Below, in pieces: positions 32,043 to 49,250 of a stretch of DNA of 64,000 bases. Source of the stretch: Patescibacteria group bacterium (GTDB taxonomy: Bacteria; Patescibacteriota; Microgenomatia; Levybacterales; UBA12049). The position numbers and the translations under genes are program-made. Numbering within the stretch: position 1 is the stretch's first letter; every line of letters starts with the position of its first letter. Under the pieces are notes generated by a model that saw only the letters and a list, made by a program, of their open reading frames with translations, was not told where the DNA came from and searched no databases. The DNA lies in NCBI GenBank assembly GCA_038063415.1, contig JBBTVD010000009.1, positions 15,430 through 79,429 on the forward strand, written 5' to 3'.

Positions 32043-32093
32043 AGACTACAATTATACTATAAAATCTTTCTTATATTGTTCTTGAGGAACAAA

Positions 32094-32978: not shown

Positions 32979-32982
32979 AGTG

Positions 32983-33624
32983 TTAGAGGTATTGTAACAA
33001 ATCTTTGACGTTTTTGACAATGTGCGTTGGCTTTGCTTTACTGATTTCATCCTCTGCCCCGTAGCCATAATATACTCCTACTGAGTCAATAGCATTTGCT
33101 TGTGCTCCGAAGATATCGTGTTTCCTGTCCCCTATCATGACAAAGGAATATTTTGGTTGGTCAGGAAAAAGAGCTAACGCTTCGGCTACGAGGTCTGTTT
33201 TGTCGGCATTGGAGAGATCGGGCTGTGAGCCGACGACTTTTTCAAAAAATGTATCCAACCCGTGGTGTTGCACAATCTTCTCTGCAATCCAGGTTGGTTT
33301 TGAAGTGACTACGAGAAGTCTGTTCCCTGATTGTTGGAGATTGGTGAGAACAGCAATGATATCAGGATATACGGTACTCTCATACATTCCAGTCGGGTGA
33401 AAATATTCTCGATAATGGAGCACTCCTTCCATCGCCTTTTCCTCGCTAAATCCATAATACTCTTGAAATGATTTATGGAGGGGTGGGCCGATAAATTTGA
33501 GAAGATTTTCAGTGTCTTCTTCAATTCCCATTCTTTTCAAAGCGTGCTGGGCAGCTTTGGTTATGCCAATTTTGGGATCAATGAGTGTCCCGTCAAGGTC
33601 AAAAAAGATAATTGGATAGGCCAT
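32983..33624 (-). CDS. HAD-superfamily hydrolase (phosphatase, subfamily IA)
   Basis: 213 aa. Motif I FFDLDGTLID; motif II (LVVTSK); motif IV (IGDRKHDIFGA). Confidence 0.8.
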   Translation of the reverse strand: MAYPIIFFDLDGTLIDPKIGITKAAQHALKRMGIEEDTENLLKFIGPPLHKSFQEYYGFSEEKAMEGVLHYREYFHPTGMYESTVYPDIIAVLTNLQQSGNRLLVVTSKPTWIAEKIVQHHGLDTFFEKVVGSQPDLSNADKTDLVAEALALFPDQPKYSFVMIGDRKHDIFGAQANAIDSVGVYYGYGAEDEISKAKPTHIVKNVKDLLQYL

Positions 33625-33627
33625 GGG

Positions 33628-34098
33628 TTAGTTTGTCTTTGCAGTTGTTAATCGTTCAAGCTTGGTGATTCTCACGTCGTGAGTCTCCATTCGTTCTTCA
33701 ATCTTTTTTACTTGAGCCGTTGCAAGTTCTCTATCTTGTTGTCTTGTTTCCAGTTCTTTTAAAAGTGGGTCAATAGCGGTAAGCACTCTATTGGTAAATT
33801 TTGACATTTCTGCCATGATATCTTCTTTCATCAGAGAAAAATCATATTTCATTTCAGCTCGCAAAGCATTTTGAGAGGCAGTAAGTCGGTCAGAGAGATC
33901 TTTTTTGGTCGGATAGTCGTTTAATGCTTTTTTCAGATCTAGTTTCGTTGGGTAGTCACTGAGAGTTTCTTTTAGGTACAGTTTGGTCGGGTAATCACTA
34001 AAAGCTTCTTTTAAATCATACTTTGTTGGGTAATTATCTAAGACTCCTTCTAATTCTCCTTTTGTTACGGGTGTTGGTGTTGCCGTTCTCTTTTGCAT
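33628..34098 (-). CDS. hypothetical protein with four tandem 13-aa DYPTKxDLK repeats and C-terminal coiled coil
   Basis: 156 aa. NYPTKYDLKEAFS / DYPTKLYLKETLS / DYPTKLDLKKALN / DYPTKKDLSDRLT, then a heptad-rich region. The underlying 39-bp tandem DNA repeat is at about 33880-34035. Confidence 0.45.
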   Translation of the reverse strand: MQKRTATPTPVTKGELEGVLDNYPTKYDLKEAFSDYPTKLYLKETLSDYPTKLDLKKALNDYPTKKDLSDRLTASQNALRAEMKYDFSLMKEDIMAEMSKFTNRVLTAIDPLLKELETRQQDRELATAQVKKIEERMETHDVRITKLERLTTAKTN

Positions 34099-34163
34099 AA
34101 ACTTAGTCTAAAAGATTCTTACTAGTTTGTCAACGAGATAAATTTCTATTTATTGTAGAAAAA

Positions 34164-34793
34164 TCATTCTGTGTCTCTTTCCTTCTCTACGGCTTTCTTT
34201 TGACCTGGAGATAACGTGTCCCAGATATTGTCTAGAAGTTCGTCTCGCGTCAGGACGTGGTGGGTCAAATAGGTTGTCGGTTTTGGCTTTCGGATAAAGC
34301 CGACAAAGATTTGGATGTCAGTAATGAGGGAAAACCCTTCACTAATGAGATCTGCCACGTTTTTGGCAGTCCCATCACCACCGGTTGTGACATCATCAAG
34401 CAGCGCAACTGGTAAATCCCAATGAACATTTCCGGTAAGTTGTTTTTGCGTCCCTTGCTCGATGGTAGTGAGGGCTTGGGATTTAAAGATAATTTGTGGC
34501 TTATCTTCACTATATGCCACTGATCCTACCATCTGGGCACTTATCTTGGAGTCAACATTGCAGAGTATATATTTTTTATCTTTATATGTTTCGTTTAGAA
34601 GAGCTATGATTACATCAATAAACGCTTTATATGCTTGAGGAGACGATGCTACCCTACTATGATCAAGGAACATAGAGGATTTCTTCCCACTTCGTAGTGT
34701 AAAAGGTTCGTCTTCAATTGATTTAACAATAAAGGCATGTGTCTGGAGTAATCCTTTGATGTAGTTTTGTTTTAAGGTTTGGAAGTCTGTCAT
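34164..34793 (-). CDS. second phosphoribosyltransferase-like protein (OPRT-like paralog)
   Basis: 209 aa. PFTLRSGKKSSMFLDHSRV (cf. F.L.SG..S..Y.D) and the PRPP motif VALLDDVTTGGDG. Confidence 0.5.
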   Translation of the reverse strand: MTDFQTLKQNYIKGLLQTHAFIVKSIEDEPFTLRSGKKSSMFLDHSRVASSPQAYKAFIDVIIALLNETYKDKKYILCNVDSKISAQMVGSVAYSEDKPQIIFKSQALTTIEQGTQKQLTGNVHWDLPVALLDDVTTGGDGTAKNVADLISEGFSLITDIQIFVGFIRKPKPTTYLTHHVLTRDELLDNIWDTLSPGQKKAVEKERDTE

Positions 34794-35339: not shown

Positions 35340-36650
35340 TCAGTTTGGTCGAGTTATTTCCTCAAAGTTTTCCTCGGTGAGGAGCTTTTTGGCAAGTACA
35401 ATCTCTCGGAAAGACTTCTGCTCTGCAACTGCTTCTTTGACAATCTTACTTACGGTGTCATAGCCAAGTTGCGGAGAGAAAAGGGTTGCATAGGTTGTCG
35501 AATTCTCCAGAAGCTCTTCACAGCGTTTTTCGTTTGGTTTGAGATATTGAATACAATGGGTTGCAAAGACAAAAAGTCCTGAAGAACTCATCTTGAGCAT
35601 CGTAATCATGGCCTCGGACATAACTGGGAACATCAGCGAAAGCTCAAGGTATGAGTTTGTTGCTGCTTGATGAATGGTCAGATTCTTCCCCATGATATCG
35701 TAGGCAATTTGATTCATTGATTCTGGAATAATTGGGTTTACTTTCCCCGGCATTATAGAAGAACCAGGTTGCAGCTCTTTGAGTGAGATCTCCCCTATTC
35801 CACCATACGGACCACTCGCAAGGAAACGAAGATCATTAGCAATCTTATTGATATCCGTAAAGAGGATATTGAGTACTGCGCTCAATTGGCAGAAATCGGA
35901 CGAGCTACTTGTCTGGGACATCATATTCTTTGCTCGTTTGATTGGGAGGTTTGTAATTCGTTGCAACTCTTGGTATGTATGTTGCATATAAGCTTCTGAT
36001 GCATTAACACTATTACCAATTGCTGTCCCTCCAAGACTGAGATCATAGAGATAGTTTTGTGCTTCTTTAATTCTCTTTTTATTTCTCTTCAGAATATCTC
36101 GATACGAAGCGCATTCTGCACCAATAGTCGTCGGAACGGCGTCTTGAAGATGGGTTCGGCCAATCTTACGAACATGTTTATACTTTTTTGCTTTATCATC
36201 AAAGGCGGTAATTACATAGTCTAAGCTCGTAAGAACTTCTTGAGTAAGTCTAATACAGACAATTTTAAGCGCTGTCGGATTTACGTCGTTGGTAGATTGT
36301 CCCATATTTACTTCATCGTTGGCATGAATTTTATGTCCATTAGCGTGAATCTCAGTAGCACGAACAGCAATGACTTCGTTGACGTTCATATGGATTGAGG
36401 TGCCTGCTCCCCCCTGAATCGCGCAGGTGACAAATTGCTCGTCAAACTTGCCAGCAATGATTTCATCGGCTGCTTGGACAATTGCCTGTGCGTACGGTTT
36501 TGGTAATTCTCCAGCTTTATAATGCCCAATTGCTGTAGCTTTTTTTACCTCCGCAATGCCATAGATAAGTTCAAGATGGACTTTGTTGGCAGGAAAAGGG
36601 AAGTTCCTGATTGCTGCTTCTGTTTTTTTACCGTAATAGATTTTTTTCAT
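35340..36650 (-). CDS. aspA: aspartate ammonia-lyase (fumarase/aspartase class II family)
   Basis: Has the family signature GSSIMPGKVNP. The N-terminal block QGGAGTSIHMNVNEVIA matches the aspartase QGGAGTSVNMNTNEV block better than the fumarase QTGSGTQSNMN block. Confidence 0.65.
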   Translation of the reverse strand: MKKIYYGKKTEAAIRNFPFPANKVHLELIYGIAEVKKATAIGHYKAGELPKPYAQAIVQAADEIIAGKFDEQFVTCAIQGGAGTSIHMNVNEVIAVRATEIHANGHKIHANDEVNMGQSTNDVNPTALKIVCIRLTQEVLTSLDYVITAFDDKAKKYKHVRKIGRTHLQDAVPTTIGAECASYRDILKRNKKRIKEAQNYLYDLSLGGTAIGNSVNASEAYMQHTYQELQRITNLPIKRAKNMMSQTSSSSDFCQLSAVLNILFTDINKIANDLRFLASGPYGGIGEISLKELQPGSSIMPGKVNPIIPESMNQIAYDIMGKNLTIHQAATNSYLELSLMFPVMSEAMITMLKMSSSGLFVFATHCIQYLKPNEKRCEELLENSTTYATLFSPQLGYDTVSKIVKEAVAEQKSFREIVLAKKLLTEENFEEITRPN

Positions 36651-36944: not shown

Positions 36945-37020
36945 CGTCATTGCGAGGAGGGTTATGCGACGAAGCAATCTTATGAGATCGCCACAACTAC
37001 TTCGTAGTCTCGCGATGACG
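36945..37020. repeat. palindromic element variant with termini CGTCATTGCGAG ... CTCGCGATGACG, overlapping the 3-prime end and stop codon of the DHOD-like gene
   Basis: Imperfect 12-bp terminal inverted repeats share CGTCAT/ATGACG ends with the main family. The gene's last codons (..KRHRETTK) and TAG stop lie inside the element. Confidence 0.55.
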
Positions 37021-38088
37021 TTTTTCTTTTATTTCCTGTGCTAGGAAGGGATTCCACATAGCGCCAGTTGCACTTAGGACAGCATCTGCACCTGCTTCTT
37101 TGTATTCATTGTAATCTTCTGGAGTCGTTACTCCCCCCACGCCTTCGATAGAAAAAGAGTAGCCTTTCTTTTCTCGAATAGTTCTGAGACGTTTGACTGT
37201 ATCAATACCTGCCCATTTGATGGGAGCACCACAGACGCCGCCTTTTGCTCGATTTTTACCAGGGAGTGCTTGTTCACCTTTTTCATTCACGATAATGCCA
37301 GGAAGTGTGTTGATTGCTACAATACCATCGGCATATTCATTGGTGATTGCTGCAATCTTTTCAAGCTGCTGCTGATCTTCATAGTATCCAACCTTTAGAA
37401 GAAACGGTGTGTTGTCACTAACCGCACGTACGCTTTTGCAAATTCTTTCCGTAACAGCAATGTTGTAACATACAAGTCCTTCATCACCATTGTTGGGGCA
37501 TGAGATATCCGCTTCGAGGATTTTTGCGCCGGTTTCTTTTACTTGTTTGGCTACAACTGCCCAGTCCTCAATAAATTCTTGTTGGGTTTGATTGGGGCGT
37601 ACAGTTCCGACAAAACTTCCAACCATTATTTGCCCTTTGCCAGCATAAGAAATTGCCTTCTTCATATCTTCTTGCCAGAATTCAGGTTTTCTTGATGGGA
37701 TATTAAAAGAATTGGTAATCGCGATTGGCTCCTGAAAGCGATCATCCCCGAGTAGTGGCTCTTGCAGTTTCTTTAGCGTCAGATCGCCCTCTACATGTAC
37801 AGAAAGCACATTGGGGAAAGGATGGCAGGGGTAGGTATCGCTACGGACTGTTTTGTACACACAGATATCAAAACCTTTTTCAAAAGCAGCTTTTGCATAC
37901 TTGCTATTGAGCAGGGGGCCTGCCGGTATACCAAAGGGAAGATATACTTTGTGTCCATGATATTCGTATTGTGGTTCTCCTTCTTGTGCATATACTTTCC
38001 CATCAGTAAAGGCTCCAAATGGTCCCTGGTCATAGTTGTCTTCGTAAGATTTTAGTGGATCGTAGAATGGAGTAATAAGCTTTTTCAT
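36997..38088 (-). CDS. dihydroorotate dehydrogenase-family flavoprotein (class 1-like TIM barrel)
   Basis: 363 aa. Blocks ...ISCPN..., ...LLKVG..., and INTLPG...G..GAP.K..GI fit the DHOD/DHPD-like family. It neighbours pyrimidine genes. Confidence 0.55.
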   Translation of the reverse strand: MKKLITPFYDPLKSYEDNYDQGPFGAFTDGKVYAQEGEPQYEYHGHKVYLPFGIPAGPLLNSKYAKAAFEKGFDICVYKTVRSDTYPCHPFPNVLSVHVEGDLTLKKLQEPLLGDDRFQEPIAITNSFNIPSRKPEFWQEDMKKAISYAGKGQIMVGSFVGTVRPNQTQQEFIEDWAVVAKQVKETGAKILEADISCPNNGDEGLVCYNIAVTERICKSVRAVSDNTPFLLKVGYYEDQQQLEKIAAITNEYADGIVAINTLPGIIVNEKGEQALPGKNRAKGGVCGAPIKWAGIDTVKRLRTIREKKGYSFSIEGVGGVTTPEDYNEYKEAGADAVLSATGAMWNPFLAQEIKEKRHRETTK

Positions 38089-38170: not shown

Positions 38171-39259
38171 CTATCGCTTTTTGTTCCAATCCCCTGTTTG
38201 CTTATTTAACAGTGCAAAGATTGAGGTCGTACGGATATCGTTGCTACCAAAAATATATTGCAGAACCCGATCATTTCCCATGCCATAGCCTGCATGAGGG
38301 TTTGTTGCCTTCTGTTTCATGATATCGAGATACCATCCAAAATCTTCGTATTTTCCTCCTCTTTGTAGATGCAGCTTATACATGGTTGAGGTGATCAATC
38401 GTTCATTGAGACGTTCAAAATCATGTTCTCTTACCGAAGAGCCAGTCCCCTCCCCTGCGTAGGGAAAGATAAGATCTGCCGAGAGACAGACACGGTTATC
38501 TTTGCTCGAGACTTTCATATTGAAAAACTTTATTTCTTTTGGATATTTCATAATAAAGACAGGAAGTTCAGTTTCTCCTTGGTTCAGGAGTTCGACAATT
38601 TTTGCTTCATGATCAGCTTTGAGGTCATCACCAAATGTCACTTTGGGAAATCCGTTTTTATTTACTAGTGCTACTGCATCTTCATAGCTGATTCTTAAGA
38701 AATCATGTGTTGCCATCTGGTGTAGTTTTTTTGTGTTTCTCTTATATATCTTTTTGAGCGTCGTTTCGTTATCTGCCAGTACTTTTTTGACCATTGCTTG
38801 TGCTGTCCCTTGGATTGCCTGCAAGAGGGCTTCGTACATCTTGTCTTCGTCATAAGCATCACGGGTCATCCCAATCATTGTACAGTCAAACTCTTCCTCG
38901 GTAAGGCGAAATTGTCTCAAATGGCGTACATCTTCCGCTTCTTCATCTCGTCCCGAGTGAATAATTGTCCAGCAGCCAGGGAAAGATTGTAATGCTTGTT
39001 CGAGTGCAAGCTGTCCTGTTTGGGTAAAGAAGAGTGGTAGACCCAGATTATTGCCTATCTTAAAAAGAGTGTCGACATTTTCACATGCACCAGTTATACC
39101 CACAATTTCCGGAACCTCGCAATAGGTCATACCTCGTGATTCATAATTTCTCGTGGCTCCCTGTACCAGTGACTGATTTATTTTGACCAAATGAGCAAAG
39201 TGCTCTTTATAGCCGAGTGTCATTCTTTTTCCTTCAATGGAGAGCTGTAAATCTTTCAT
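38171..39259 (-). CDS. standalone class-II aminoacyl-tRNA-synthetase-like catalytic core (AsnRS/AspRS-like; candidate archaeal-type asparagine synthetase A)
   Basis: 362 aa. Motif-2-like RHLRQFRLTEEEFDCTMIGM and motif-3-like GYGMGNDRVLQYIFG, plus the AGEGTGSSVREHD block. No anticodon-binding domain. Confidence 0.45.
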   Translation of the reverse strand: MKDLQLSIEGKRMTLGYKEHFAHLVKINQSLVQGATRNYESRGMTYCEVPEIVGITGACENVDTLFKIGNNLGLPLFFTQTGQLALEQALQSFPGCWTIIHSGRDEEAEDVRHLRQFRLTEEEFDCTMIGMTRDAYDEDKMYEALLQAIQGTAQAMVKKVLADNETTLKKIYKRNTKKLHQMATHDFLRISYEDAVALVNKNGFPKVTFGDDLKADHEAKIVELLNQGETELPVFIMKYPKEIKFFNMKVSSKDNRVCLSADLIFPYAGEGTGSSVREHDFERLNERLITSTMYKLHLQRGGKYEDFGWYLDIMKQKATNPHAGYGMGNDRVLQYIFGSNDIRTTSIFALLNKQTGDWNKKR

Positions 39260-39415: not shown

Positions 39416-40396
39416 ATGGTAAACAAAGTCCCTTATTTAGATCTAAAAGCAGAAATTCTTCAGAAAATAAAGAAAAATGGTGGTTGGGTAAATGCCCATG
39501 CACATCTTGATCGTGCATATAGTCTCACGAAAGAAACATATCACTTTACAAGTGCTACTCTTCAAGAAAAGTGGGATCTCAATGACGAATTAAAATTAAA
39601 TTCGTCTGTGGATGCTATCTATGATCGGATGGCTCAAGGCGTTGAGCGAATGCTTGAACAAGGAGTTAGCGCAATTGGGACTTTTATCGATGTGGATGAC
39701 AAAATAGAAGATAAGGCTATTAAGGCGGCACAAAAAATACGTGATAGATATAAAAATGACCTGCAAATAAAATATATCAATCAAGTTCATTATGGTGTTC
39801 TTGAACCTGAACCTCGAAAATGGTTCGATCTTGGCGCCGAATTTGTTGATATTATCGGTGGCTTACCTGAGCGCGATAAAGGGAAAGAGTCCGAACATAT
39901 TGATATTCTTCTTCAGACAGCTAAACGCCTCAATAAGATGGCTCATGTTCATATTGATCAATTCAATGATCCAGAACAACATGACACTGAATTATTAGCA
40001 AAGAAAACAATTGAACACAATATGCAAGGAAAGGTTGTTGGCATTCATGGGATATCTATTGCTGCGCAAGAAAAAAAATATCGTCAGGATCTTTATAAAA
40101 TGATGAAAAAAGCAGATCTTATGATGATTGCCTGTCCTCTTGGATGGATTGATACACGACGTAACGAAGTACTTATGCCTTTCCATAACGCGTTAACGCC
40201 TGTTGATGAATTAATTCCTGCAGGTATTACAGTTGCTTTGGGAACTGATAATATCATAGATATTTATAAACCATTTATTAATGGAAGCATGTGGGAAGAG
40301 TTGCATGCCCTTTTGGAATCTGCACATTTTTATGATGTTGATGAGCTTGTTAACGTTGCGACGGTAAATGGACGAAAAGCGTTAGGGATTAAATAA
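39416..40396 (+). CDS. amidohydrolase-superfamily protein, cytosine deaminase-like
   Basis: 326 aa. Metal ligands at VNAHAHLD, HVHIDQ and ALGTDNI resemble the E. coli CodA HIHLD / HCDE / GHDD arrangement. Confidence 0.55.
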   Translation: MVNKVPYLDLKAEILQKIKKNGGWVNAHAHLDRAYSLTKETYHFTSATLQEKWDLNDELKLNSSVDAIYDRMAQGVERMLEQGVSAIGTFIDVDDKIEDKAIKAAQKIRDRYKNDLQIKYINQVHYGVLEPEPRKWFDLGAEFVDIIGGLPERDKGKESEHIDILLQTAKRLNKMAHVHIDQFNDPEQHDTELLAKKTIEHNMQGKVVGIHGISIAAQEKKYRQDLYKMMKKADLMMIACPLGWIDTRRNEVLMPFHNALTPVDELIPAGITVALGTDNIIDIYKPFINGSMWEELHALLESAHFYDVDELVNVATVNGRKALGIK

Positions 40397-40530: not shown

Positions 40531-41346
40531 CTACTCTCTCATTTCAAGTATGTTAGTCAGACAGTTGATTCCTCCACCCGATTTCTTAAACTCCGATAGA
40601 TCTACTTCAATGCTCTCATATCCCAATGCTGCAAGTTTGTTCCCAAAGGTAGGGTTTCCTTTTTGCCTCACAACTGTTTTTCCTGTGACAATACTGTTGG
40701 CAGAAAACCCTTCCGTTTCTTTTCTTGTGAGAGGTATAAAATTGGGCACAATATTCTTCAGAAGTTTCTGACTTTCTGGAATATAGGCATCAGGCGAGAA
40801 GAAGATTGTTTGATCATCGAGTGGGAAGAAACCGATATCAAAATGATAAAACGCTGGAGCTCTCGTATGTAACTGGACAACTTCAATATCCGGGAAGAGC
40901 TTCTGGAGGTATCGACAAACCGGTACATCCGTACGATAGCCGATAGCGACAAACAATTTATCATTCCAAAAATGCATTGTCCCATTTCCTTCAAAATAAA
41001 GCTCCTGGGGAAGCTGTACGATCTCAAAGCCATGATTTTTATACCATTCCGCATAAAACGGTGTTTCTCCCTGGCGCTCTTTGTATCGGAATCGACTCAG
41101 GAGCACGTTGTTGCCAAAGATAAGGCTCTGGTCTGTTGAAAAAACCATATCTGGTAATCCCTTCACCTGGTTAATAATTTCTACTGTTATGCCTAGGTCT
41201 TTATACACTTGTACTAAGTTCTCCCATTGCTTCAGTGCTTTTTTTGGGTTAATACTCGCAGTTTGCATCCATGGATTGATAATATAATCAAACGAGGAGA
41301 AGTAGAGGGGTCTACACATGAGAACACGCTTAATAACGCTCTGCAT
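40531..41346 (-). CDS. amidinotransferase-superfamily enzyme, dimethylarginine dimethylaminohydrolase (DDAH)-like
   Basis: 271 aa. The C-terminal SGGGINCLT carries the catalytic Cys of DDAH/arginine-deiminase-type enzymes. Confidence 0.6.
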   Translation of the reverse strand: MQSVIKRVLMCRPLYFSSFDYIINPWMQTASINPKKALKQWENLVQVYKDLGITVEIINQVKGLPDMVFSTDQSLIFGNNVLLSRFRYKERQGETPFYAEWYKNHGFEIVQLPQELYFEGNGTMHFWNDKLFVAIGYRTDVPVCRYLQKLFPDIEVVQLHTRAPAFYHFDIGFFPLDDQTIFFSPDAYIPESQKLLKNIVPNFIPLTRKETEGFSANSIVTGKTVVRQKGNPTFGNKLAALGYESIEVDLSEFKKSGGGINCLTNILEMRE

Positions 41347-41391: not shown

Positions 41392-42207
41392 TTACTCAAC
41401 AGTTTCTTTGAGTACATTGGTCAGACAATGGGCACCACCGCCTGATTTAATAAACTCTCCAACGTCCACTGGTACTGTTTTGTACCCTAATGTCTGTAAT
41501 TTTTTCTCAAGGGTGTGATTTCCTTTTTGTAAGACAACATGATGATCAGTTATGACACTGTTCCCTCCAAATCCCAGCACCTCTTCTTGGCTAAATTCCA
41601 ATAGATTTGGGATTTTCTTTTGTAAGATCTTTTGTGTTTCCAGGGTATAGGCATGTGGGTAATAAAAAACGGTCTGATTATTGAGGGGAAGCATCGCAAC
41701 GTCCAAATGATAATACCTTGGATCAGTAATCTGGAGTGGGATTACTTCCCGGTCAAAAATCTTTTGTAAGGTCGGAATTGTCTCGTCACTACTTCGATAC
41801 CCTACACCGAGGAAAATAAGGTCATTCCAAAAATACATTTCCCCATTGCCTTCAAAAAAGACGTTCTCTGGTAAGTAGTGGATCTTGTAGTCATTGTCCG
41901 AGAACCATGCTTCATAGTATTTGCTCTCCCCTCTCCTCTCTCGGTGACGGAAGCGACTAAGCAGCACTTTCTTATCCTGCACAATTCCTTGATCTGCCGC
42001 AAATACCATGTCAGGCACGTCTTCTCCTTGTTCAATAGTATTCACTTCAATACCAAGCTTTTTATAGACTTGCACCAGATGCTTCCATTGTTTCATAGCT
42101 ACTTCCGTATCTGCTGTCCCTGGTTTCATCCAGGGATTGATGACGTAATCTACTGAAAAATAAGTAGGCCGACAGACGAGCACTTTTTTTATAAGTTTAT
42201 TTTTCAT
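41392..42207 (-). CDS. second DDAH-like amidinotransferase (tandem paralog)
   Basis: 272 aa from MKNKLIKKVLVCRP. It is collinear with the 40531-41346 product (VLVCRPTYFSVDYVINPWM vs VLMCRPLYFSSFDYIINPWM; SGGGAHCLT vs SGGGINCLT). The track ORF's longer N-terminal extension runs into argG and is rejected. Confidence 0.6.
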   Translation of the reverse strand: MKNKLIKKVLVCRPTYFSVDYVINPWMKPGTADTEVAMKQWKHLVQVYKKLGIEVNTIEQGEDVPDMVFAADQGIVQDKKVLLSRFRHRERRGESKYYEAWFSDNDYKIHYLPENVFFEGNGEMYFWNDLIFLGVGYRSSDETIPTLQKIFDREVIPLQITDPRYYHLDVAMLPLNNQTVFYYPHAYTLETQKILQKKIPNLLEFSQEEVLGFGGNSVITDHHVVLQKGNHTLEKKLQTLGYKTVPVDVGEFIKSGGGAHCLTNVLKETVE

Positions 42208-42235: not shown

Positions 42236-43876
42236 CTACACTGTTGCTTTTTGCAGTTTCTCGATGAAGGCTGTCGCAAGGTGAACACTCGTAAAAATTG
42301 GCACATTGTGTTCAACTGCTTTCTGTCTGATAATTTTCCCGTCTGTTTGGGTGACTTCCTTTTCCATAGGGATGTTAATAATAAGATCGAATCTATTGGA
42401 GTCGAGTAGATCTCCAAGGTTTGGCTTAAGTTGCGGCTGAGAAATCTTATGAACCAGAATCGTTTCAAGACCATTGGTCTTAAGGAATTTATGATTCTTG
42501 TAGGTAGCATAGATTTTGTAACCCATGTCATGCAATTTCTTAATTGAAGGAAGCAATTTAACTTTGTTTTCTCTCTTTCCGATTGAAATAAGAGCTGTCT
42601 TCTCTGACCGTTGGGCAAGTTTCATCGACAAGGTATAGTGTTCTATGAAGCCTGCTGATGCATTTTGATTCAGTCCCTCTGATACCATAAAGGTTGCCAG
42701 TTTTTCTTCAAAGATAGTGTTTGGTGTCTCAAGCGCCATAACCTGGGCCATGCCTTTGTAGAGTTGTACTGTTACTTTACCGGTTACTTTTTTATTGACG
42801 TTATCAATAAAGGCGTTTAAATCATGCATTAATGGCTCATACCAGAGTGCTCCATAGCAGAGGTATGCCCATTTTTGATCGACTGTTGCTTTAAATTCAT
42901 TTTCTGTTCTGGTACAGACATAGTGTTCGAGTTTTTCATGAGCAGTAATGATGATCTCGGCAGCCGGAGCTTCAAAAACATCACGAATTTTCATACCAAT
43001 AATTCTATCTTCGATGTGCACGTTCGTCCCTACTCCATGTTTTGCACCAATTTTGTTGAGTTCCATAATAAGATCCGCAAGTTTCATTTGCTTCCCATTA
43101 AGGCTAACGGGTACTCCTTTAACAAATTCAAGATGTACCATTTCTGCTTTATCAGGTGCGTCTTGTGGTAGTTTATTTACGACAAGAATTTTCTCTAGCG
43201 GTGGGATAAGTGCTGGATTTTCGATTTCTCCTCCTTCTCCTGATGTTCCCCACATGTTGTCATCATATGAGTAAGGCTTTTCACTCGTGTGACTGACTGG
43301 GATACCATTCTCTTTGGCATAAGCTAATTCTTCTGTCCTCCCCATGCTCCACTCTCGGACTGGAGCAATAATCTTGATGTCTGGATTAAGGGCAAGGGCT
43401 GAACCTTCAATACGGATCTGGTCATTGCCTCGTCCTGTGCAGCCGTGTGCAATAGCATCTGCTCCTTCTTGTGCAGCGATTTTGACTGCCCATTTGGCAA
43501 GGAGTGGTCGTCCTATTGCTGTTGCGAGACGATAGCGGTGTTGGTAGTTTGCGTTTGCCTTAATGCCTTTTGCGATATATTCTTCAGCAAATTCATCTTT
43601 GGCATCGATAACATACGTTTTGACTGCACCAAGTTTGATAGCTTTTGCTTTGATTTCATCAAGATCATCAACAATTTGTCCAATATCGATTGTGAGGGCA
43701 ATAACTTCTGCTTTATATTCGTCTTGGATCCATTTGAGCATAACTGAGGTATCCAAACCTCCGGAGTATAAGAGGACAACTTTTTTAACTTCACCTTTTT
43801 TGCCTTCGTAACTTGCAACCTTTGTATATGTTGATTTTTTATCCATACAGGTGTCTGTATAAGAAAAGTGAGTCAT
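42236..43876 (-). CDS. argG: argininosuccinate synthase fused to a C-terminal MGS-like (CarB allosteric-domain-like) domain
   Basis: The N-terminal approx 400 aa is ArgG (VVLLYSGGLDTSV, full-length conservation). The C-terminal approx 130 aa (ALISIGKRENK...GYKIYATYKNHKFL...FDLIINIP...DGKIIRQKAVEHNVPIFTS...) matches the methylglyoxal-synthase-like domain pattern of the CarB C-terminus. The probable start is MDKKS at 43846. Confidence 0.75.
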   Translation of the reverse strand: MTHFSYTDTCMDKKSTYTKVASYEGKKGEVKKVVLLYSGGLDTSVMLKWIQDEYKAEVIALTIDIGQIVDDLDEIKAKAIKLGAVKTYVIDAKDEFAEEYIAKGIKANANYQHRYRLATAIGRPLLAKWAVKIAAQEGADAIAHGCTGRGNDQIRIEGSALALNPDIKIIAPVREWSMGRTEELAYAKENGIPVSHTSEKPYSYDDNMWGTSGEGGEIENPALIPPLEKILVVNKLPQDAPDKAEMVHLEFVKGVPVSLNGKQMKLADLIMELNKIGAKHGVGTNVHIEDRIIGMKIRDVFEAPAAEIIITAHEKLEHYVCTRTENEFKATVDQKWAYLCYGALWYEPLMHDLNAFIDNVNKKVTGKVTVQLYKGMAQVMALETPNTIFEEKLATFMVSEGLNQNASAGFIEHYTLSMKLAQRSEKTALISIGKRENKVKLLPSIKKLHDMGYKIYATYKNHKFLKTNGLETILVHKISQPQLKPNLGDLLDSNRFDLIINIPMEKEVTQTDGKIIRQKAVEHNVPIFTSVHLATAFIEKLQKATV

Positions 43877-44169
43877 TTAATTATATTTTGACTCATTTTT
43901 CTCTTATCTAGACCATATTAGTTATAAAATGAATATTTGTCAACAGGCAGTTTGGGCATTTTATACTAAGTTATCTTATTTTTACCCAAATATTAAACTA
44001 AATTGAGGTGAAAAGAGTCATTTTTTATTAATTAAGGTTAATTTTATCTCTTTTGTTCTCTCTGATTAATTCCCTTCGATAGGAGAAGTCATTGTTAAAA
44101 ATGAACCAGTTTCTTTACGAGTTATGTTGTGTATTTTATCAAATTTAAAAATCGGTGATTTTCCGCTTC

Positions 44170-44215: not shown

Positions 44216-45334
44216 ATGAAGCATCATCCTACCCATCATCATAAAAAGAAAGAACGTAGACCCTTAGTCTACTTCCTTCTCTTTCTTCTCATTCCAGTTC
44301 TGGCTATTACACTTTTTGTCATGCAGGAGCCGCAGGATGTCAGACAACGAGCTGCTGAACCTATTGCTGGATGTGGAAAGCCGGGAGACCCAGGGAACGA
44401 AAAAGGCGTAGGAAAATACTGTAATAGTTCGGTAGATTGTTTAGGTTCGGGGTCGCCGATTTGTTCCGCAGATATACGGCCAGATGATCCGCATATTTGT
44501 TCAAAACCTTGTAGTACAGATGCCGATTGTGGCAGTGGAGCTGTTTGTTATCAGGATGTACTGGGTAAAGGGTGTAAGCCTGTTGCCTGTGATGCTCCTG
44601 TTCCGACAGCGACAACACAGCCAACTGCTACCAAAGCTCCTACTGCAACTACTGCACCGAGTGCTACCAATAGGCCGACAATGACGACTGCACCTTCAGT
44701 AACAAAAGCACCTACAGTTGCTGCTTCGATAACCATTGCTCCAAGTGTCACGCAAACACCTACACAAACAGTCACAGTCTCTCCTACGTTAAGTCCAAGT
44801 GCCACAACGCTATCTCTGTCAGTACTTCTTCATGGTATCGGTTCTGGGGGAGATAGTGTCAATATCTCCAGTGCCTTGAGTAACAAGTCACCCAAGCGAA
44901 CAGATCGCTTGTTTACGGTAACTGTATTTACTGGAGCCAATCAGATTGTGAGCAACAAGACTGTTCCTCTAACGTATAATACAGATACTGGTGCCTACGA
45001 AGGCATTGTGAATCTTGGAGACACCTGGTTGGGATCTAGTTATAGTCTCAAGATCAAGACAGAAAGCTTTTTGGATAATGTCCAGACAAACTTTGCTATT
45101 CCTGCCAAAAAGAAAACGGATGTTCCTGAGGTGATCTTGGTTGTGGGAGATGTCAATGGAGATAATATGTTAAATACGCTTGATTATAATTTGATTACCG
45201 GTTGCTTTAGTGAGTTTGCCACGGCTGCTTCCTGTTCCGAGAGCCAACTCGTTGCCTCAGATCTCAACGATGATGGTGTCGTGAATCGTGTCGATTATAA
45301 TCTTTTTCTACGGGAGATAAGTGCGCAGAATTAG
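44216..45334 (+). CDS. secreted Cys-rich protein (8-Cys domain), T/P/A-rich linker, C-terminal dockerin-like pair of Ca-binding repeats
   Basis: 372 aa. Basic N-terminus plus hydrophobic anchor, then an 8-Cys module (CGKPGDPGNEKGVGKYC...CSAD...ICSKPCS..DCGSGAVC...LGKGCKPVAC). The C-terminal GDVNGDNMLNTLDYNLI and DLNDDGVVNRVDYNLFL fit dockerin type-I D-x-N-x-D-G-x-x-N-x-x-D repeats. Confidence 0.55.
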   Translation: MKHHPTHHHKKKERRPLVYFLLFLLIPVLAITLFVMQEPQDVRQRAAEPIAGCGKPGDPGNEKGVGKYCNSSVDCLGSGSPICSADIRPDDPHICSKPCSTDADCGSGAVCYQDVLGKGCKPVACDAPVPTATTQPTATKAPTATTAPSATNRPTMTTAPSVTKAPTVAASITIAPSVTQTPTQTVTVSPTLSPSATTLSLSVLLHGIGSGGDSVNISSALSNKSPKRTDRLFTVTVFTGANQIVSNKTVPLTYNTDTGAYEGIVNLGDTWLGSSYSLKIKTESFLDNVQTNFAIPAKKKTDVPEVILVVGDVNGDNMLNTLDYNLITGCFSEFATAASCSESQLVASDLNDDGVVNRVDYNLFLREISAQN

Positions 45335-45398
45335 CTGATATGATATATTGACTTGCTATAAAATTTTCTGCTACGCTTAAAAAGTTATATCCTTAGTT

Positions 45399-46076
45399 AT
45401 GAAAGTAAAAAAGAAAAAAGTTCAGATAAAAAAGAAACAGGTTTCTCGGAAACTGCTGTGGTTTTTTGTCCTGATACCCGCTCTGCTGCTTACCGTCGTT
45501 GCTCTACAATCGCCACAAATAGTTAAACAAGAGGCAGCAACAAGCGGAATTACCACCTGTGGAGGTTCAGGTGAGCCTGGAAACGAAAAAGGAGTCGGAA
45601 AAGCTTGCACTAAGGGTGGCGGAGAATGCGGTGGTGATGCCCCTTTTTGCTCGGCAGATTTTGTCGATGGTCCAGGGGTATGTTCAAAGCCTTGTTCTAA
45701 CAATAATGAATGTGGAACGGGAGCAAAATGTGTACAACAAAGTCTTGGCAAAGGCTGCGAGCCAGTAGTCTGCGCAGAGGAAGCACAGCCAACTGATTTT
45801 GTTCCCAGTGCACAATGTCTGGGTACTTCCTGTGAGGAAAATGATGCTGAAGAAGAGGAAGGAGATAGCGAAGATACTGAAACAGATAATGAAGCGACAG
45901 ATTCTGCGGAAGAAGATCCTGATGAAAACGGCGACAATCAAAATAATGATGAAGAAAATGATAACCAAGGAGATAATGATGGTGGAGGCAATGAAGATGC
46001 AAAGGGATTGTTCTTCAGAATTCTTGAACTTATTAGCCAGCTATTGGAACTCTTCATTGGGTGGTTACAGAAATAA
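45399..46076 (+). CDS. secreted Cys-rich paralog (same 8-Cys domain) with poly-acidic D/E/N-rich C-terminal tail
   Basis: 225 aa. Signal anchor, then CGGSGEPGNEKGVGKAC...CSAD...VCSKPCS..ECGTGAKC...LGKGCEPVVC, collinear with the upstream protein. The tail is EENDAEEEEGDSEDTETDNE... Confidence 0.5.
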   Translation: MKVKKKKVQIKKKQVSRKLLWFFVLIPALLLTVVALQSPQIVKQEAATSGITTCGGSGEPGNEKGVGKACTKGGGECGGDAPFCSADFVDGPGVCSKPCSNNNECGTGAKCVQQSLGKGCEPVVCAEEAQPTDFVPSAQCLGTSCEENDAEEEEGDSEDTETDNEATDSAEEDPDENGDNQNNDEENDNQGDNDGGGNEDAKGLFFRILELISQLLELFIGWLQK

Positions 46077-47275
46077 TGCTCAGTTCATTGTTTAAAACAA
46101 AAAGATTTTTTCTTCTCCTGCTTCTTTTGCTCGTTATTTTTGTTGTCCGGCAAATTTTTCTGTCCTCTCCATCACATGAGTTAACGTATACCGTTACTCG
46201 TGGTGAGTTAGTTGACACTGTTGAGGCAAGTGGTATGTTTATGACGGCTTTGCAAAAAGAGATTTTTTCTCCGACAAAAGGGGTTATTACTCAGTTATAT
46301 GTGGTGAACAATCAGGAAGTAAAAAAAGGTGAGCCCCTCTTTCATGTCGAAAGTACCGCTACTGAAAAGGAAAAAATCACGGCACTCGCCACCTATCAAA
46401 CAGCAGTAAGTACGTTAACGACTGCTCAACAAACAAAAGAGTCCCTTGATGCTACGATGTGGACAGAACATAAAGCATTGCTTGATGCACAAAATGCAAA
46501 GAACTTTCAAGAAGATAATACGACAAATCCTGATACTGATGATACGTATACTGATTTAGAAAAAAGGAGTCTCGATTCTGCGCTTGTTCAAGCCAGAAAG
46601 GACTTTGCCACGGCTGAGAAAAAATACAAAGAAGCTGACAGTGCAATTGTGGCTGCTCAAGCATCTCTTGCATCTGCAAAAAGAGTGTACGATGAAACAA
46701 AAGATGTAACTATTGCTGCTCCTGTTGGTGGGACGATCGTTAATTTGTTAAAAAAAGTTGGTGATGAAGTCTCTATCCCTGAGACATCTTCAGAATCACA
46801 ATCACAGAAAAAGCCTGTTCTCCCAGTACTCATGATTGCTAATCTAGCAAATCCAGTGATTATCGCAACGGTTAATGAATCATATATCCCTCGCATTACT
46901 ACTGGACAAAGAGTATCAGTTATCTTTGATGCACTGAAAGAAGAACGTTTTACTGGCTCGGTTGCCGAGGTAGATACGATAGGAACCGATACTGATGGCG
47001 TGGTCACCTATCAAGTTCGTATAGAATTTCCAGATATTCCTCCAACCATCCGTCCTAAAATGACAGCCATTGTGTCTATTGAGACGTTGTACAAAAGTAA
47101 TGTATTGACTGTACCTAATAGTGCGCTACTGACACAAGATGGAAAGACGTATATTAAAAAGAATGGTAAAGTGAACGAGCTAATTGCAGTTACGACTGGA
47201 AAAAGAGGAACCACAAAGACCGAAGTTACCTCAGGTCTTGAAGAAGGAGATGTCATTCTGGCAAATGTACAATGA
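46061..47275 (+). CDS. HlyD/MacA-family periplasmic adaptor (membrane fusion protein)
   Basis: 404 aa. N-terminal TM, a long coiled-coil-prone segment, and a C-terminal beta-barrel/lipoyl-like region (TVPNSAL...). It overlaps both neighbours by a few nt. Confidence 0.6.
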   Translation: MVTEIMLSSLFKTKRFFLLLLLLLVIFVVRQIFLSSPSHELTYTVTRGELVDTVEASGMFMTALQKEIFSPTKGVITQLYVVNNQEVKKGEPLFHVESTATEKEKITALATYQTAVSTLTTAQQTKESLDATMWTEHKALLDAQNAKNFQEDNTTNPDTDDTYTDLEKRSLDSALVQARKDFATAEKKYKEADSAIVAAQASLASAKRVYDETKDVTIAAPVGGTIVNLLKKVGDEVSIPETSSESQSQKKPVLPVLMIANLANPVIIATVNESYIPRITTGQRVSVIFDALKEERFTGSVAEVDTIGTDTDGVVTYQVRIEFPDIPPTIRPKMTAIVSIETLYKSNVLTVPNSALLTQDGKTYIKKNGKVNELIAVTTGKRGTTKTEVTSGLEEGDVILANVQ

Positions 47276-48540
47276 AGAATATACAAGGTTATGATAAAGA
47301 TTTCTCGGTAGGTTTTTTCTTGGCACTTCGAGATATACGCCGGAGTAATCCCTGGACCACTTCTCTTATTATTACGGTCATGACGTTAACCTTTTTTAAT
47401 ATGTTGTTTGTCGGTGGGATACTTATTGGACTTGTTTCGGGACTTATTGAGGGTTTCCGGCAGTATTACTCAGGTGATGTTTTTATTAGTCCTGCTGATG
47501 AAAAATATACTATTGAACAGACCAGTACCATAATCTCTGTAGCAGAAAGTGTCCCGACCTTCGTTTCTCTCTCCAAACGATATACAGAAAATGTTCTTGT
47601 GGAAAGCAACTATCGTAACCGTGTTCGTACAACTGATGCTCCAGAAAGCGTCGGCGCTATACTTGTTGGTATTGATCCACAAGCGGAAGACAAAATTTCT
47701 CATTTGTCCAGATATCTTGTCGAAGGAGCATTCCTGGACAAAAATGATGTGGATGCTGTGGTCATTGGGAAAGACTTGCTCGCAAAGTACGTCAAAAATA
47801 TCCAGGCAGTAACAAAAAAACTCCATGACGTCAAGATTGGTACCAAAATACGTCTGACCGTGAATGGCAAGCAAGAAGAAGTAACAGTCAAAGGCATTAT
47901 TAATACGACTAATCAGATTGCTGATACACGAGTCTATATGACAGAGGCTATGGTACGAAAACTTTTGGGAAGAGAAAGTCTTAATGCCAATGAAATTGCT
48001 ATTGACTTAGCTCCAGGTGCATCTGATGAAGAAGCAAAGGAATTTATTACCGCAAATATTTCAAATGGTACCGATGTAAAGGTCCAAACAGCTGATGATG
48101 CTGTCCCTGCAGGAAGCGTTGATGTCAAACAGACGTTTATTGTTCTTCGAGATATTGTTGGATTTATCGCGTTGATTGTCGGAGCCATTACGATCTTTAT
48201 TGTTATTTTTGTTAATGCGATTACGAGGCGAAAGTTTATTGGTATCCTTAAAGGTATTGGAATCTCCTCACGGGCAATTCAAATATCTTATGTTTATCAG
48301 GCATTGTTTTATGCAGTATCGGGGATCATCATTGGTAGTATCATTATCATGGGAATGCTCAAGCCGTATTTTGACATATATCCTTTGCAACTACCTATTG
48401 CCGAGGGACGTCTTGCCCTGAGCTATACAGATCTTTTGATTAGAGCCGGTATTTTAACCCTTACGGCTTTTATTTCCGGGTTTATTCCTGCATGGTTAGT
48501 AACAAAGCAAAATACCCTGGATGCGATTTTGGGGAGATAA
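47272..48540 (+). CDS. FtsX/MacB-type ABC transporter permease (4 TM with large periplasmic loop)
   Basis: 422 aa. TM1, then an approx 250-aa extracytoplasmic domain, then three C-terminal TM helices (FIALIVGAITIFIV..., ...IIGSIIIMGML..., ...LTLTAFISGFIPA...), the FtsX-like arrangement. Confidence 0.7.
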   Translation: MKNIQGYDKDFSVGFFLALRDIRRSNPWTTSLIITVMTLTFFNMLFVGGILIGLVSGLIEGFRQYYSGDVFISPADEKYTIEQTSTIISVAESVPTFVSLSKRYTENVLVESNYRNRVRTTDAPESVGAILVGIDPQAEDKISHLSRYLVEGAFLDKNDVDAVVIGKDLLAKYVKNIQAVTKKLHDVKIGTKIRLTVNGKQEEVTVKGIINTTNQIADTRVYMTEAMVRKLLGRESLNANEIAIDLAPGASDEEAKEFITANISNGTDVKVQTADDAVPAGSVDVKQTFIVLRDIVGFIALIVGAITIFIVIFVNAITRRKFIGILKGIGISSRAIQISYVYQALFYAVSGIIIGSIIIMGMLKPYFDIYPLQLPIAEGRLALSYTDLLIRAGILTLTAFISGFIPAWLVTKQNTLDAILGR

Positions 48541-48560
48541 TTTTAGTTCTGTACAATATT

Positions 48561-49250
48561 ATGATGGAAGTAAAAAATTTAATAAAAAAGTTTCAAACTG
48601 GTGATACTGAGTTGATTGCTCTCAAAAATCTTAGCTTTACCGTCCCGACAGGGCAATTTCTCGCAATTACTGGTCGTTCAGGTTCTGGCAAAAGTACCTT
48701 GCTCTATCAGATGAGCTTGCTTGATCGTGCCAATGAAGGAAAACTTATCATTGATGATCAGGAAGTTTCAGCCTTTACTAATGATGAACGTGTTGCCTAC
48801 CGTCGGGATAATTTTGGTTTTGTTTTTCAAGATTATGCTCTCCTTCCGGTTCTTACGGCGAAAGAAAATGTTATGCTCCCAATGTTGATGCAAGGGGTTG
48901 CCAAGAGTATCACAAGAGAAAAGACTGAGAAAGCCCTGCAACGAGTCGGCCTGTCAGATCGATTTGATTATCTTCCCAGTCAGCTCTCTGGTGGACAACA
49001 ACAGCGTGTGAGTATTGCCCGGGCGATTGCGCATAATCCAAGGATTGTGTTCGCTGATGAACCGACAGCCAATCTTGATACTGAGTCATCCAAAATCGTT
49101 CTGGATATCTTTCTCGAGCTTAATAAATCAGGCCAAACGATTATTATGGTAACGCACGAGCCTGATTATGCCAAACTTGCTGATCGAAGGATCGAGTTGT
49201 TGGATGGAGATATTGTTAATGATATCGGACAAAAAAAGGGCAAAAAGTGA
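48561..49250 (+). CDS. ABC transporter ATP-binding protein (MacB/LolD-type)
   Basis: Walker A GRSGSGKST, Q-loop, signature LSGGQQQRVSIARA, Walker B IVFADEPT, H-loop VTHE. The ATG at 48561 (MMEVKNL) is preferred over the track start at 48492. Confidence 0.85.
   Translation: MMEVKNLIKKFQTGDTELIALKNLSFTVPTGQFLAITGRSGSGKSTLLYQMSLLDRANEGKLIIDDQEVSAFTNDERVAYRRDNFGFVFQDYALLPVLTAKENVMLPMLMQGVAKSITREKTEKALQRVGLSDRFDYLPSQLSGGQQQRVSIARAIAHNPRIVFADEPTANLDTESSKIVLDIFLELNKSGQTIIMVTHEPDYAKLADRRIELLDGDIVNDIGQKKGKK

Follow-up and report, generated by a model that had tools for sequence, protein, structure and literature searches.

Introduction

Argininosuccinate synthase (ArgG in bacteria, ASS1 in human; EC 6.3.4.5) is normally viewed as lacking a regulatory domain of its own. 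The solved enzymes of the short bacterial/eukaryotic type (T. thermophilus 1J1Z, Legionella 7K5Z, and human 2NZ2) consist of a HUP domain, a synthase domain, and a C-terminal arm. In human ASS1, citrulline and aspartate are contacted by Y87, T119, N123, D124, R127, S189, E191, E270, and Y282 (PMC13289927). Carbamoyl-phosphate synthetase (CPS), in turn, carries an allosteric methylglyoxal synthase (MGS)-like domain at its extreme C-terminus, as seen in Escherichia coli CarB (residues 933-1073) and in the L4 domain of human CPS1 (2YVQ/5DOU). T977 and K993 of CarB are crucial for UMP inhibition and UMP binding, the S948F mutation abolishes sensitivity to UMP and IMP, and T1042 binds ornithine (PMC6245113).

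Here we describe argG-MGS, a gene that joins ArgG to a domain of this CarB type, in a 64,000-nucleotide stretch of DNA (the window) from a Patescibacteria group bacterium (assembly GCA_038063415.1, contig JBBTVD010000009.1, positions 15,430 to 79,429 of the forward strand). Patescibacteria are commonly portrayed as lacking de novo nucleotide synthesis, and the one paper found to mention their argG treats it as ordinary. In literature on ArgG/MGS-like fusions, on MGS-like domains of the candidate phyla radiation, and on pyrimidine routes and tRNA-synthetase-like genes of Patescibacteria, we found no description of the fusion or of a link between aminoacyl-tRNA synthetase (aaRS)-like genes and pyrimidine synthesis. 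In public databases the proteins go by the plain name "argininosuccinate synthase", with a precomputed Pfam architecture. Both parts of the protein are well known; we know of no earlier account of their combination or of the occurrence of the module on several enzymes of one cluster.

Domain architecture of ArgG-MGS

The longest open reading frame (ORF) at the locus (42236..43876, minus strand) encodes 546 amino acids in a single uninterrupted frame with no internal stops. It opens with an ATG at 43876, upstream of the likely start at 43846 (Met11), where the homologues and the NCBI protein (P0001, 536 aa, 100% identical to the window protein) likewise begin. Residue numbers refer to the 536-aa protein unless stated otherwise; adding 10 converts them to ORF numbering. 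In the ORF, Pfam placed Arginosuc_synth at residues 32-193, Arginosuc_syn_C at 202-420, and MGS (PF02142) at 441-529, the last with 2.8e-17 and 63.1 bits against a gathering score of 24.1. Across the ArgG/MGS boundary, MKLAQRSEKTALISIGKRENK, the DNA runs straight on in frame, and the MGS domain follows the C-terminal arm of ArgG with almost no linker. The gene is a genuine fusion of canonical ArgG with a CarB/CPS1-type MGS domain of about 120 residues. A preliminary description of the ORF had proposed a C-terminal extension of CarB type; Pfam, NCBIfam, a PDB profile, and AlphaFold/Foldseek all bore this out with matches too strong for chance, and the profile searches did not assign the extension to an unrelated fold.

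The ArgG body carries the features of a canonical synthase. It exceeded the cutoffs of the argG equivalog models in NCBIfam (NF001770, 505.9 bits, cutoff 334; TIGR00032, 460 bits, cutoff 268.2), matched T. thermophilus ArgG (1J1Z) in a PDB sequence search (2.4e-101, 343 bits), and contains the PP-loop motif SGGLDTS, here as YSGGLDTS, which is invariant in 120 homologues. The AlphaFold model of the full-length protein (pLDDT 85.6, pTM 0.73) has the same HUP domain, synthase domain, and C-terminal arm as the solved ArgGs 7k5z, 4xfj, 1kh1, and 2nz2, with target-normalised Foldseek TM-scores of 0.85-0.90 at 37-42% identity; the arm was modeled at lower pLDDT (59-75).

The substrate contacts of human ASS1 are kept at nine of the ten listed positions (N123 is listed twice, for citrulline and for aspartate). 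Y87, T119, N123, and D124 correspond to Y105, T137, N141, and D142, and R127, S189, E191, and E270 to R145, S202, E204, and E279 in the window protein. Seven of these eight residues are invariant in the 120 homologues, and S202 is Ser in 102 and Thr in 18. The sole non-conserved contact is Y282, replaced by F291 (Phe in 90/120 and Tyr in 30/120 homologues); in addition, the conserved E-N-R motif reads EDR. An altered substrate specificity arising from Tyr282 to Phe and ENR to EDR was considered and found unsupported, as Phe and Tyr both occur at position 291 within the family and the nine other contacts are kept. The window protein is best explained as a working argininosuccinate synthase, predicted to convert citrulline, aspartate, and ATP into argininosuccinate, AMP, and PPi. 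Unlike known ArgG/ASS1 proteins, it has about 120 extra C-terminal residues folded as an independent MGS-like domain, and its gene lies in a pyrimidine-type cluster, not in an arg operon.

Relationship of the MGS domain to CPS allosteric domains

The CarB models of NCBIfam aligned only to residues 403-544 (ORF numbering), which cover the last ~135 model positions (TIGR01369 positions 914-1051 of 1052, 7e-16); the two ATP-grasp units of CarB are absent, and in a tblastn search the CarB of a relative matched no other part of the window. In the PDB sequence search, the tail matched the MGS domain of human CPS1 (2yvq, 1.3e-07). An AF2 model of the last 147 residues, comprising the junction and the MGS domain, had a pLDDT above 90 over the domain, and Foldseek ranks 1-18 for this model were solely the allosteric domains of E. 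coli CarB and human CPS1 (E 6e-8 to 3e-6; rmsd 2.3-4.4 Å, mostly ~2.5 Å; 116-131 columns). Like these domains, the ArgG-borne domain stands at the extreme C-terminus of its protein and has the same fold (rmsd ~2.3-2.5 Å over ~116-122 residues), at 26-28% sequence identity; unlike them, it is joined to ArgG and not to an ATP-grasp synthetase. Methylglyoxal synthases (MgsA; 15-20% identity) and PurH ranked below all CPS structures in Foldseek (E 1e-5 to 1e-3). When a profile built from 34 such MGS domains was run against the PDB, CPS1 (2yvq) was found at 1.4e-20 and E. coli CarB 940-1044 at 7e-10, PurH gave only a partial match (1zcz, profile positions 4-58, E 1.3e-4), and MgsA gave none; the NCBIfam mgsA and purH models had no match at E <= 0.01. 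The domain is closer to the CPS allosteric domains than to MgsA or PurH.

We mapped the effector pocket of E. coli CarB by profile alignment to CarB 940-1044 and counted conservation in the 120 best homologues. CarB S948, K954, T974, T977, K993, N1015, R1030, and T1042 correspond to S421, K428, T448, T451, K467, N491, R507, and T519, which are conserved in 113, 120, 120, 118, 119, 117, 118, and 118 of the 120, respectively, so that the equivalents of the UMP/IMP pocket are 94-100% conserved in the ArgG-MGS family. In E. coli CarB, K954, T974, and N1015 also line the IMP site. The CarB ornithine-site residues contributed by the carbamoyl-phosphate domain have no counterpart in ArgG-MGS. Mean identity to the window protein is 67.7% for the MGS domain versus 82.1% for the ArgG body; the MGS domain is thus the faster-evolving part, its pocket positions nonetheless being fixed. 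For the MGS part, dN was 0.10-0.20 and dS was saturated or undefined, so that a dN/dS ratio is not computable.

Distribution of the fusion

The three Pfam domains of the window protein, PF02142 among them, recur in every one of the 120 best protein clusters (71-100% identity; drawn from NCBI, JGI, ENA, and Logan assemblies), at lengths of ~536-545 aa. A further scan used an alignment of the junction and MGS region as query against GTDB genomes, each species being represented by one. Relatives were encoded in 184 species genomes, and in the best 80 of these 184, which were retrieved (L006-L085), the ArgG body is encoded together with the MGS domain in a single stop-free frame in 80/80 loci. These 80 loci come from Levyibacteriota, Roizmanbacteria, Gottesmanbacteria, other Microgenomates, Saccharimonadales/Saccharibacteria, and one Parcubacteria genome. 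The informatively named records are all Patescibacteria (Levyibacteriota, Roizman-, Gottesman-, Woyke-, and Daviesbacteria, Saccharimonadales, and Parcubacteria); titles reading "uncultured Gammaproteobacteria" (L007, L011-L013, and many more) are labels on Patescibacteria contigs and not taxonomy. L007 and CAYMJR010000004.1 are the same contig as L005. More divergent ArgG-MGS fusions exist as well, in Parcubacteria among others (P0165/P0511). ArgG-MGS is no isolated case: in Patescibacteria the architecture holds throughout the family. The organism of the window, which comes from a Hainich groundwater sample, is placed near Levybacteria by synteny, with a match to L003 in the order gyrB-ppa-gyrA-folD-argG…SIMPL-integrase-trehalase.

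MGS domains on other enzymes

The MGS domain alone was searched against 1.84 billion representative proteins, which gave 1120 matches at E <= 1e-3. The nearest relatives of the ArgG-borne domain include fusions to enzymes other than ArgG. The same MGS subtype (36-57% identity) stands at the C-terminus of a ligase resembling asparaginyl-tRNA synthetase (AsnRS), between this AsnRS-like ligase and DHO_dh (P0254; with an additional phosphoribosyltransferase (PRTase) in P0131), at the N-terminus of DHO_dh (P0151), after an amidohydrolase (P0146), and after a GNAT acetyltransferase (P0128). The GNAT-borne domain (P0128/P0514, Candidatus Shapirobacteria) is 48% identical to the ArgG-borne one; it deserves attention because the homologous domain of CPS1 binds N-acetylglutamate. 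These AsnRS-like-MGS, MGS-DHO_dh, Amidohydro_1-MGS, and GNAT-MGS fusions, whose domains are the nearest relatives of the ArgG-borne one at 36-53% identity, differ from ArgG-MGS in their catalytic partners, and we know of no functional account of any of them. Of the partner families, the AsnRS-like ligases, DHO_dh, and the amidohydrolases are represented in the gene neighborhood of ArgG-MGS. The pocket residues are near-invariant across the MGS domains on ArgG, the AsnRS-like ligase, DHO_dh, the amidohydrolase, GNAT, and CarB, and a ligand-binding module therefore fits better than a partner-specific surface.

The AsnRS-like ligase family, for which only 774 homologues were found, includes members in the window (38171..39259) and in L055, L057, L067, L078, L092, P0131, P0135, and P0254. 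Among the 120 nearest homologues of the window copy, 98 carry the MGS domain, and the window copy itself is one of the 22 without it. ArgG-borne MGS domains have a mean identity of 43% to the aaRS-borne domains versus 33% to the CarB domains of the same Patescibacteria lineages. ArgG-MGS occurs together with the aaRS-like-MGS protein in L055, L057, L067, and L078, and together with CarB-MGS in 10 loci; these co-occurrences rule out the notion of one MGS per cluster, that is, a free-standing pathway subunit fused to any neighbor. The AsnRS-like gene occupies the slot that carA-carB-pyrB-pyrC fill elsewhere, never shares a locus with CarB (4 loci, plus the window, versus 10), and heads a pyrD-pyrF-pyrE-pyrG operon in L092. 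The AsnRS-like ligase may replace early pyrimidine steps.

Gene clusters around argG-MGS

Neighboring genes were counted over the 80 related loci, restricted by the downstream sequence present. The most constant neighbor of argG-MGS is a PRK06886-type amidohydrolase gene, present in 56/63 loci with at least 3.5 kb downstream; an ArgZ-like gene stands beside argG-MGS in 32 of the same 63, and at least one pyrimidine gene occurs in 43/51 loci with at least 8 kb downstream. The carA-carB-pyrB-pyrC set is part of the cluster in seven loci and CarB alone in three more, which makes up the 10 loci with CarB. A bona fide argF gene for ornithine carbamoyltransferase (330-414 bits, cutoff 281) adjoins argG-MGS in four loci. 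Four (L007, L017, L036, and L055) have an adjacent ArgH, a short protein of 395-405 aa that exceeds the argH cutoff and is without the ASL_C2 domain. Of the contigs with ArgG-MGS, those of 3051, 10739, 85994, and 86575 bp had a match in length among the 120 best ArgH clusters, and none of the megabase contigs did. Because argF, argH, and carAB stand with argG-MGS in relatives, ordinary arginine synthesis from ornithine/citrulline fits these clusters. The cluster joins two pathways that share carbamoyl phosphate and aspartate.

The closest described gene set is that of the cyanobacterial ornithine-ammonia cycle (ArgZ/AgrE with ArgF, ArgG, ArgH, and CPS). Judged from their gene content, the relatives appear to combine the set for such a cycle (ArgZ-like, argF, argG, argH, and carAB), as assembled across their loci and not from one genome. 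Unlike those of the cyanobacterial cycle, the Patescibacteria ArgZ-like genes are single-domain and below NCBIfam cutoffs, and we know of no cyanobacterial ArgG with an MGS domain.

Features of the window are listed in Table 1. The ArgZ-like gene next to argG-MGS scored 246 bits with DiMArgaseDdahMtb and 220 bits with Arg_dihydro in NCBIfam, both below cutoff; its best PDB match was cyanobacterial Sll1336 (ArgZ) at 188 bits, compared with 36 bits for DDAH. Its listed ORF runs artificially to a TTG at 42618. The amidohydrolase, whose NCBIfam model bears the name "hypothetical protein", matched 4r7w, CodA, and AtzC in the PDB and is ~100 aa shorter than its cytosine deaminase/AtzC relatives. The first ~165 residues of the DHO_dh-like protein match no Pfam model. 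The fumarase-class lyase, which scored just 72 bits with the argH model, is not an ArgH.

No ArgH, ArgF, CarA, CarB, PyrB, or PyrC was found in the 64-kb window, either by tblastn with the proteins of relatives, including CarB, or by Pfam, and the remaining window ORFs contained no further arginine gene. About 3 kb and 2 kb past the two window ends, reached via the edge genes, no arg, car, or pyr genes were found. The search for pathway genes thus covered 64 kb plus ~5 kb of a 141.7-kb contig. The number of promoter-like sites in the region was not above that in shuffled sequences.

Table 1. Coordinates of argG-MGS, its domains, and neighboring genes in the window, with argF genes of related loci
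Feature	Position	Strand	Basis or remark
argG-MGS coding sequence	42236..43846	-	536 aa from Met11 (ATG 43846), stop TAG 42236-42238; homologue and NCBI protein starts
ArgG N-terminal HUP/PP-loop ATP pyrophosphatase domain, with YSGGLDTS motif	43298..43783	-	Pfam PF00764, 1.8e-67; alignment to 1j1z
ArgG C-terminal (synthase) domain, including C-terminal arm helices	42617..43273	-	Pfam PF20979, 3.4e-66; Foldseek
MGS-like domain, CarB/CPS1 allosteric type	42242..42598	-	Residues 417-535; PF02142, NCBIfam CarB C-terminus, PDB profile, AF2/Foldseek
MGS pocket residues of the window protein (536-aa numbering)	S421, K428, T448, N451, K467, N491, R507, T519		Profile alignment to E. coli CarB
Promoter-like site TTGACA-17-TAATAT	43915..43943	-	Upstream of argG-MGS; 10/12 consensus matches, consensus match only
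ArgZ/AgrE-type arginine-dihydrolase-like gene (guanidino-group-modifying superfamily)	41392..42207	-	ATG at 42207, 28 nt after argG-MGS stop
Second, tandem ArgZ-like paralogue	40531..41346	-	Pfam, NCBIfam; below all NCBIfam cutoffs
PRK06886-type amidohydrolase, cytosine-deaminase/AtzC-like	39416..40396	+	NCBIfam NF005365, 475.6 bits (cutoff 340)
AsnRS-catalytic-core-only ligase ("amino acid--tRNA ligase-related protein")	38171..39259	-	Without anticodon-binding domain; without MGS here
Divergent dihydroorotate-dehydrogenase-like gene	36997..38088	-	Pfam DHO_dh, 3.3e-19; PyrD models 71 bits (cutoff 269)
Aspartate ammonia-lyase/fumarase-class lyase	35340..36650	-	Aspartate ammonia-lyase subfamily model 481 bits (cutoff 510)
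Pyrimidine-end genes	31404..34793	-	PRTase-like 34164-34793, 156-aa ORF, HAD hydrolase, OMP decarboxylase 32094-33068, PRTase 31404-32042
Ornithine carbamoyltransferase beside argG-MGS in related loci	L054 10414-11370; L017 2723-3706; L036 7823-8779; L009 1804-2601		

Two further parts of the window were recorded. Between folD and argG-MGS, which are close together in L003 and L005, lies a block of genes (44216..49250, plus strand) encoding a pair of Cys-rich, secreted paralogues, of which one has a dockerin and the other an acidic low-complexity tail, an HlyD-like protein, an FtsX-like permease, and an ABC ATPase; the block looks like an insertion. A 1082-aa ORF at 56034..59282 (minus strand) matched no Pfam family at E <= 0.001 and is conserved in a second assembly (L088, 1068 aa).

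Discussion

On balance, we incline to the view that the MGS domain equips ArgG with a portable regulatory module of CarB type that probably binds a ligand. The C-terminal arm of ArgG would have acquired a copy of the CarB/CPS1 effector-binding domain, which would bind a small effector. The conserved Lys/Thr pocket argues for an anionic one, probably a nucleotide monophosphate or another phosphorylated metabolite, with UMP or IMP as the obvious candidates by analogy with CarB. The signal would then be passed to the ArgG active site or to the tetramer interface and would couple the citrulline-to-argininosuccinate step to nucleotide status. The arginine pathway in these small genomes is best explained as cut to argF/argG/argH at most, with the ArgA/ArgB feedback point missing, and since that feedback target is missing, ArgG would become the step to control. 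ArgG would also compete with pyrimidine synthesis for aspartate and, via citrulline, for carbamoyl phosphate.

What the analysis demonstrates is the fusion and its fold, the conserved residues of active site and pocket, the occurrence across Patescibacteria, and the gene neighborhood; that a ligand is bound, what it may be, and in which direction it would act we infer. The preliminary description had suggested allosteric control of ArgG, which the near-invariant pocket residues make plausible. It had further suggested that the organism may lack a full arginine pathway. The window agrees with this, as it holds no ArgH, ArgF, CarA, or CarB, but close relatives do have argH, argF, and carAB beside the fusion. 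Beyond that description, our analysis added the family-wide architecture, the pyrimidine/arginine cluster, and the presence of the same MGS module on other enzymes of the cluster.

Several points weigh against a regulatory role of this kind. To our knowledge, ArgG is not under allosteric control through a separate domain. A signal path to the active site is hypothetical, and the full-length model has a pTM of 0.73 and a low-confidence arm. At the T977 equivalent, the window protein carries Asn (N451; 42496..42498, minus strand), one of two exceptions among the 120 homologues. In the ArgG-MGS family, Ile and Pro replace CarB T1016 and T1017; the site is therefore different in its ribose/base portion and may bind a ligand other than UMP or IMP. 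Human CPS1 binds N-acetylglutamate in the same pocket, and pocket conservation therefore leaves the ligand class unfixed. Finally, conserved Lys and Thr are a general trait of MGS-like folds.

The domain might instead be a structural module that alters the oligomeric state of ArgG or docks it to the other MGS-bearing enzymes of the cluster (CarB and the AsnRS-like ligase) in a multi-enzyme complex, without sensing a ligand. The position of the domain would suit such a role, as it sits on the ArgG C-terminal arm (modeled here at low confidence), which mediates tetramer contacts in solved structures. The allosteric domains of E. coli CPS form one tetramer interface. Oligomerization of that enzyme has been discussed (PMC6245113). 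Several cluster enzymes bear the same module, and ArgG-MGS and the aaRS-like-MGS protein occur together in four loci. On the other hand, the positions that are invariant across partners are those of the effector pocket, with which a docking surface is not expected to coincide, and within the window cluster the module is found on ArgG only, the aaRS-like gene being without it. We regard a purely structural role as unlikely.

Another reading, compatible with a sensor role of the domain, takes ArgG-MGS mainly as the entry enzyme of a carbamoyl-phosphate-independent pyrimidine route, with the MGS domain as the UMP feedback sensor of its first step. In such a route, for which a chemically reasonable scheme can be drawn, ArgG would make argininosuccinate, the AsnRS-like ligase would close a six-membered ring, and the AtzC-like amidohydrolase would free ornithine to leave dihydroorotate, while the ArgZ-like enzymes would supply citrulline from arginine. 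The window cluster contains genes for all of these, followed by pyrD-like, pyrF, and pyrE genes, with no carAB, pyrB, pyrC, argH, or argF in 64 kb. The constancy of the amidohydrolase as a neighbor, the place of the ligase gene in the carA-carB-pyrB-pyrC slot, its absence from loci with CarB, the L092 operon, and the fusions of the ligase to DHO_dh and also PRTase point in the same direction. A precedent is found in CPS-less archaea, in which arginine-derived carbamoyl groups feed pyrimidines (PMC13260591). Loci with a full carAB-pyrB-pyrC set (L007, L066, L071, L076, and L079), however, keep both ArgG-MGS and the amidohydrolase, so these two are not simple substitutes. In addition, argF and/or argH adjoin argG-MGS in several genomes, as expected if arginine is made in the ordinary way, the active site of ArgG has the canonical residues, most loci have no aaRS-like gene, and the chemistry of the route is a conjecture of this analysis. 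As the main function of ArgG-MGS, we consider this route improbable. We are equally doubtful of its wider form. There, Patescibacteria would have rewired their arginine/pyrimidine network, with the MGS domain sensing the end product on each entry enzyme, and would make dihydroorotate from aspartate and citrulline or arginine without carbamoyl phosphate, through enzymatic cyclization and hydrolysis of argininosuccinate.

A second catalytic domain, which would make the protein bifunctional with a methylglyoxal-synthase-like or IMP-cyclohydrolase-like activity, is very improbable: the fold is catalytic in MgsA and PurH, both of which Foldseek did find, but no mgsA or purH model of NCBIfam matched, the PDB profile returned CPS domains and a partial PurH match (1e-4) only, and the 18 top structures were all CPS allosteric domains, with MgsA at 15-20% identity. 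An assembly or annotation artefact, the missed stop or frameshift joining a separate downstream gene that the preliminary description had raised, is refuted by the one open frame through the junction and the recurrence of the architecture in independent genomes; nothing was found in its favor, and we give it practically no weight.

Taking the ligand-binding regulatory module as the favored reading, a bacterial radiation gave ArgG the sensor domain that controls CPS, which suggests that control in these minimal genomes moved to ArgG and was wired to pyrimidine-synthesis signals. The presence of the module on the AsnRS-derived ligase, the PyrD-like enzyme, and the amidohydrolase marks these uncharacterized enzymes as one regulated unit and hints that Patescibacteria, a major uncultured radiation, may begin pyrimidine synthesis by steps not yet known. 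As a small, well-folded domain, MGS offers a means of finding new couplings between effectors and enzymes, and ArgG-MGS provides a solid, testable example of how a regulatory domain passes from one enzyme to another where pathways cross.

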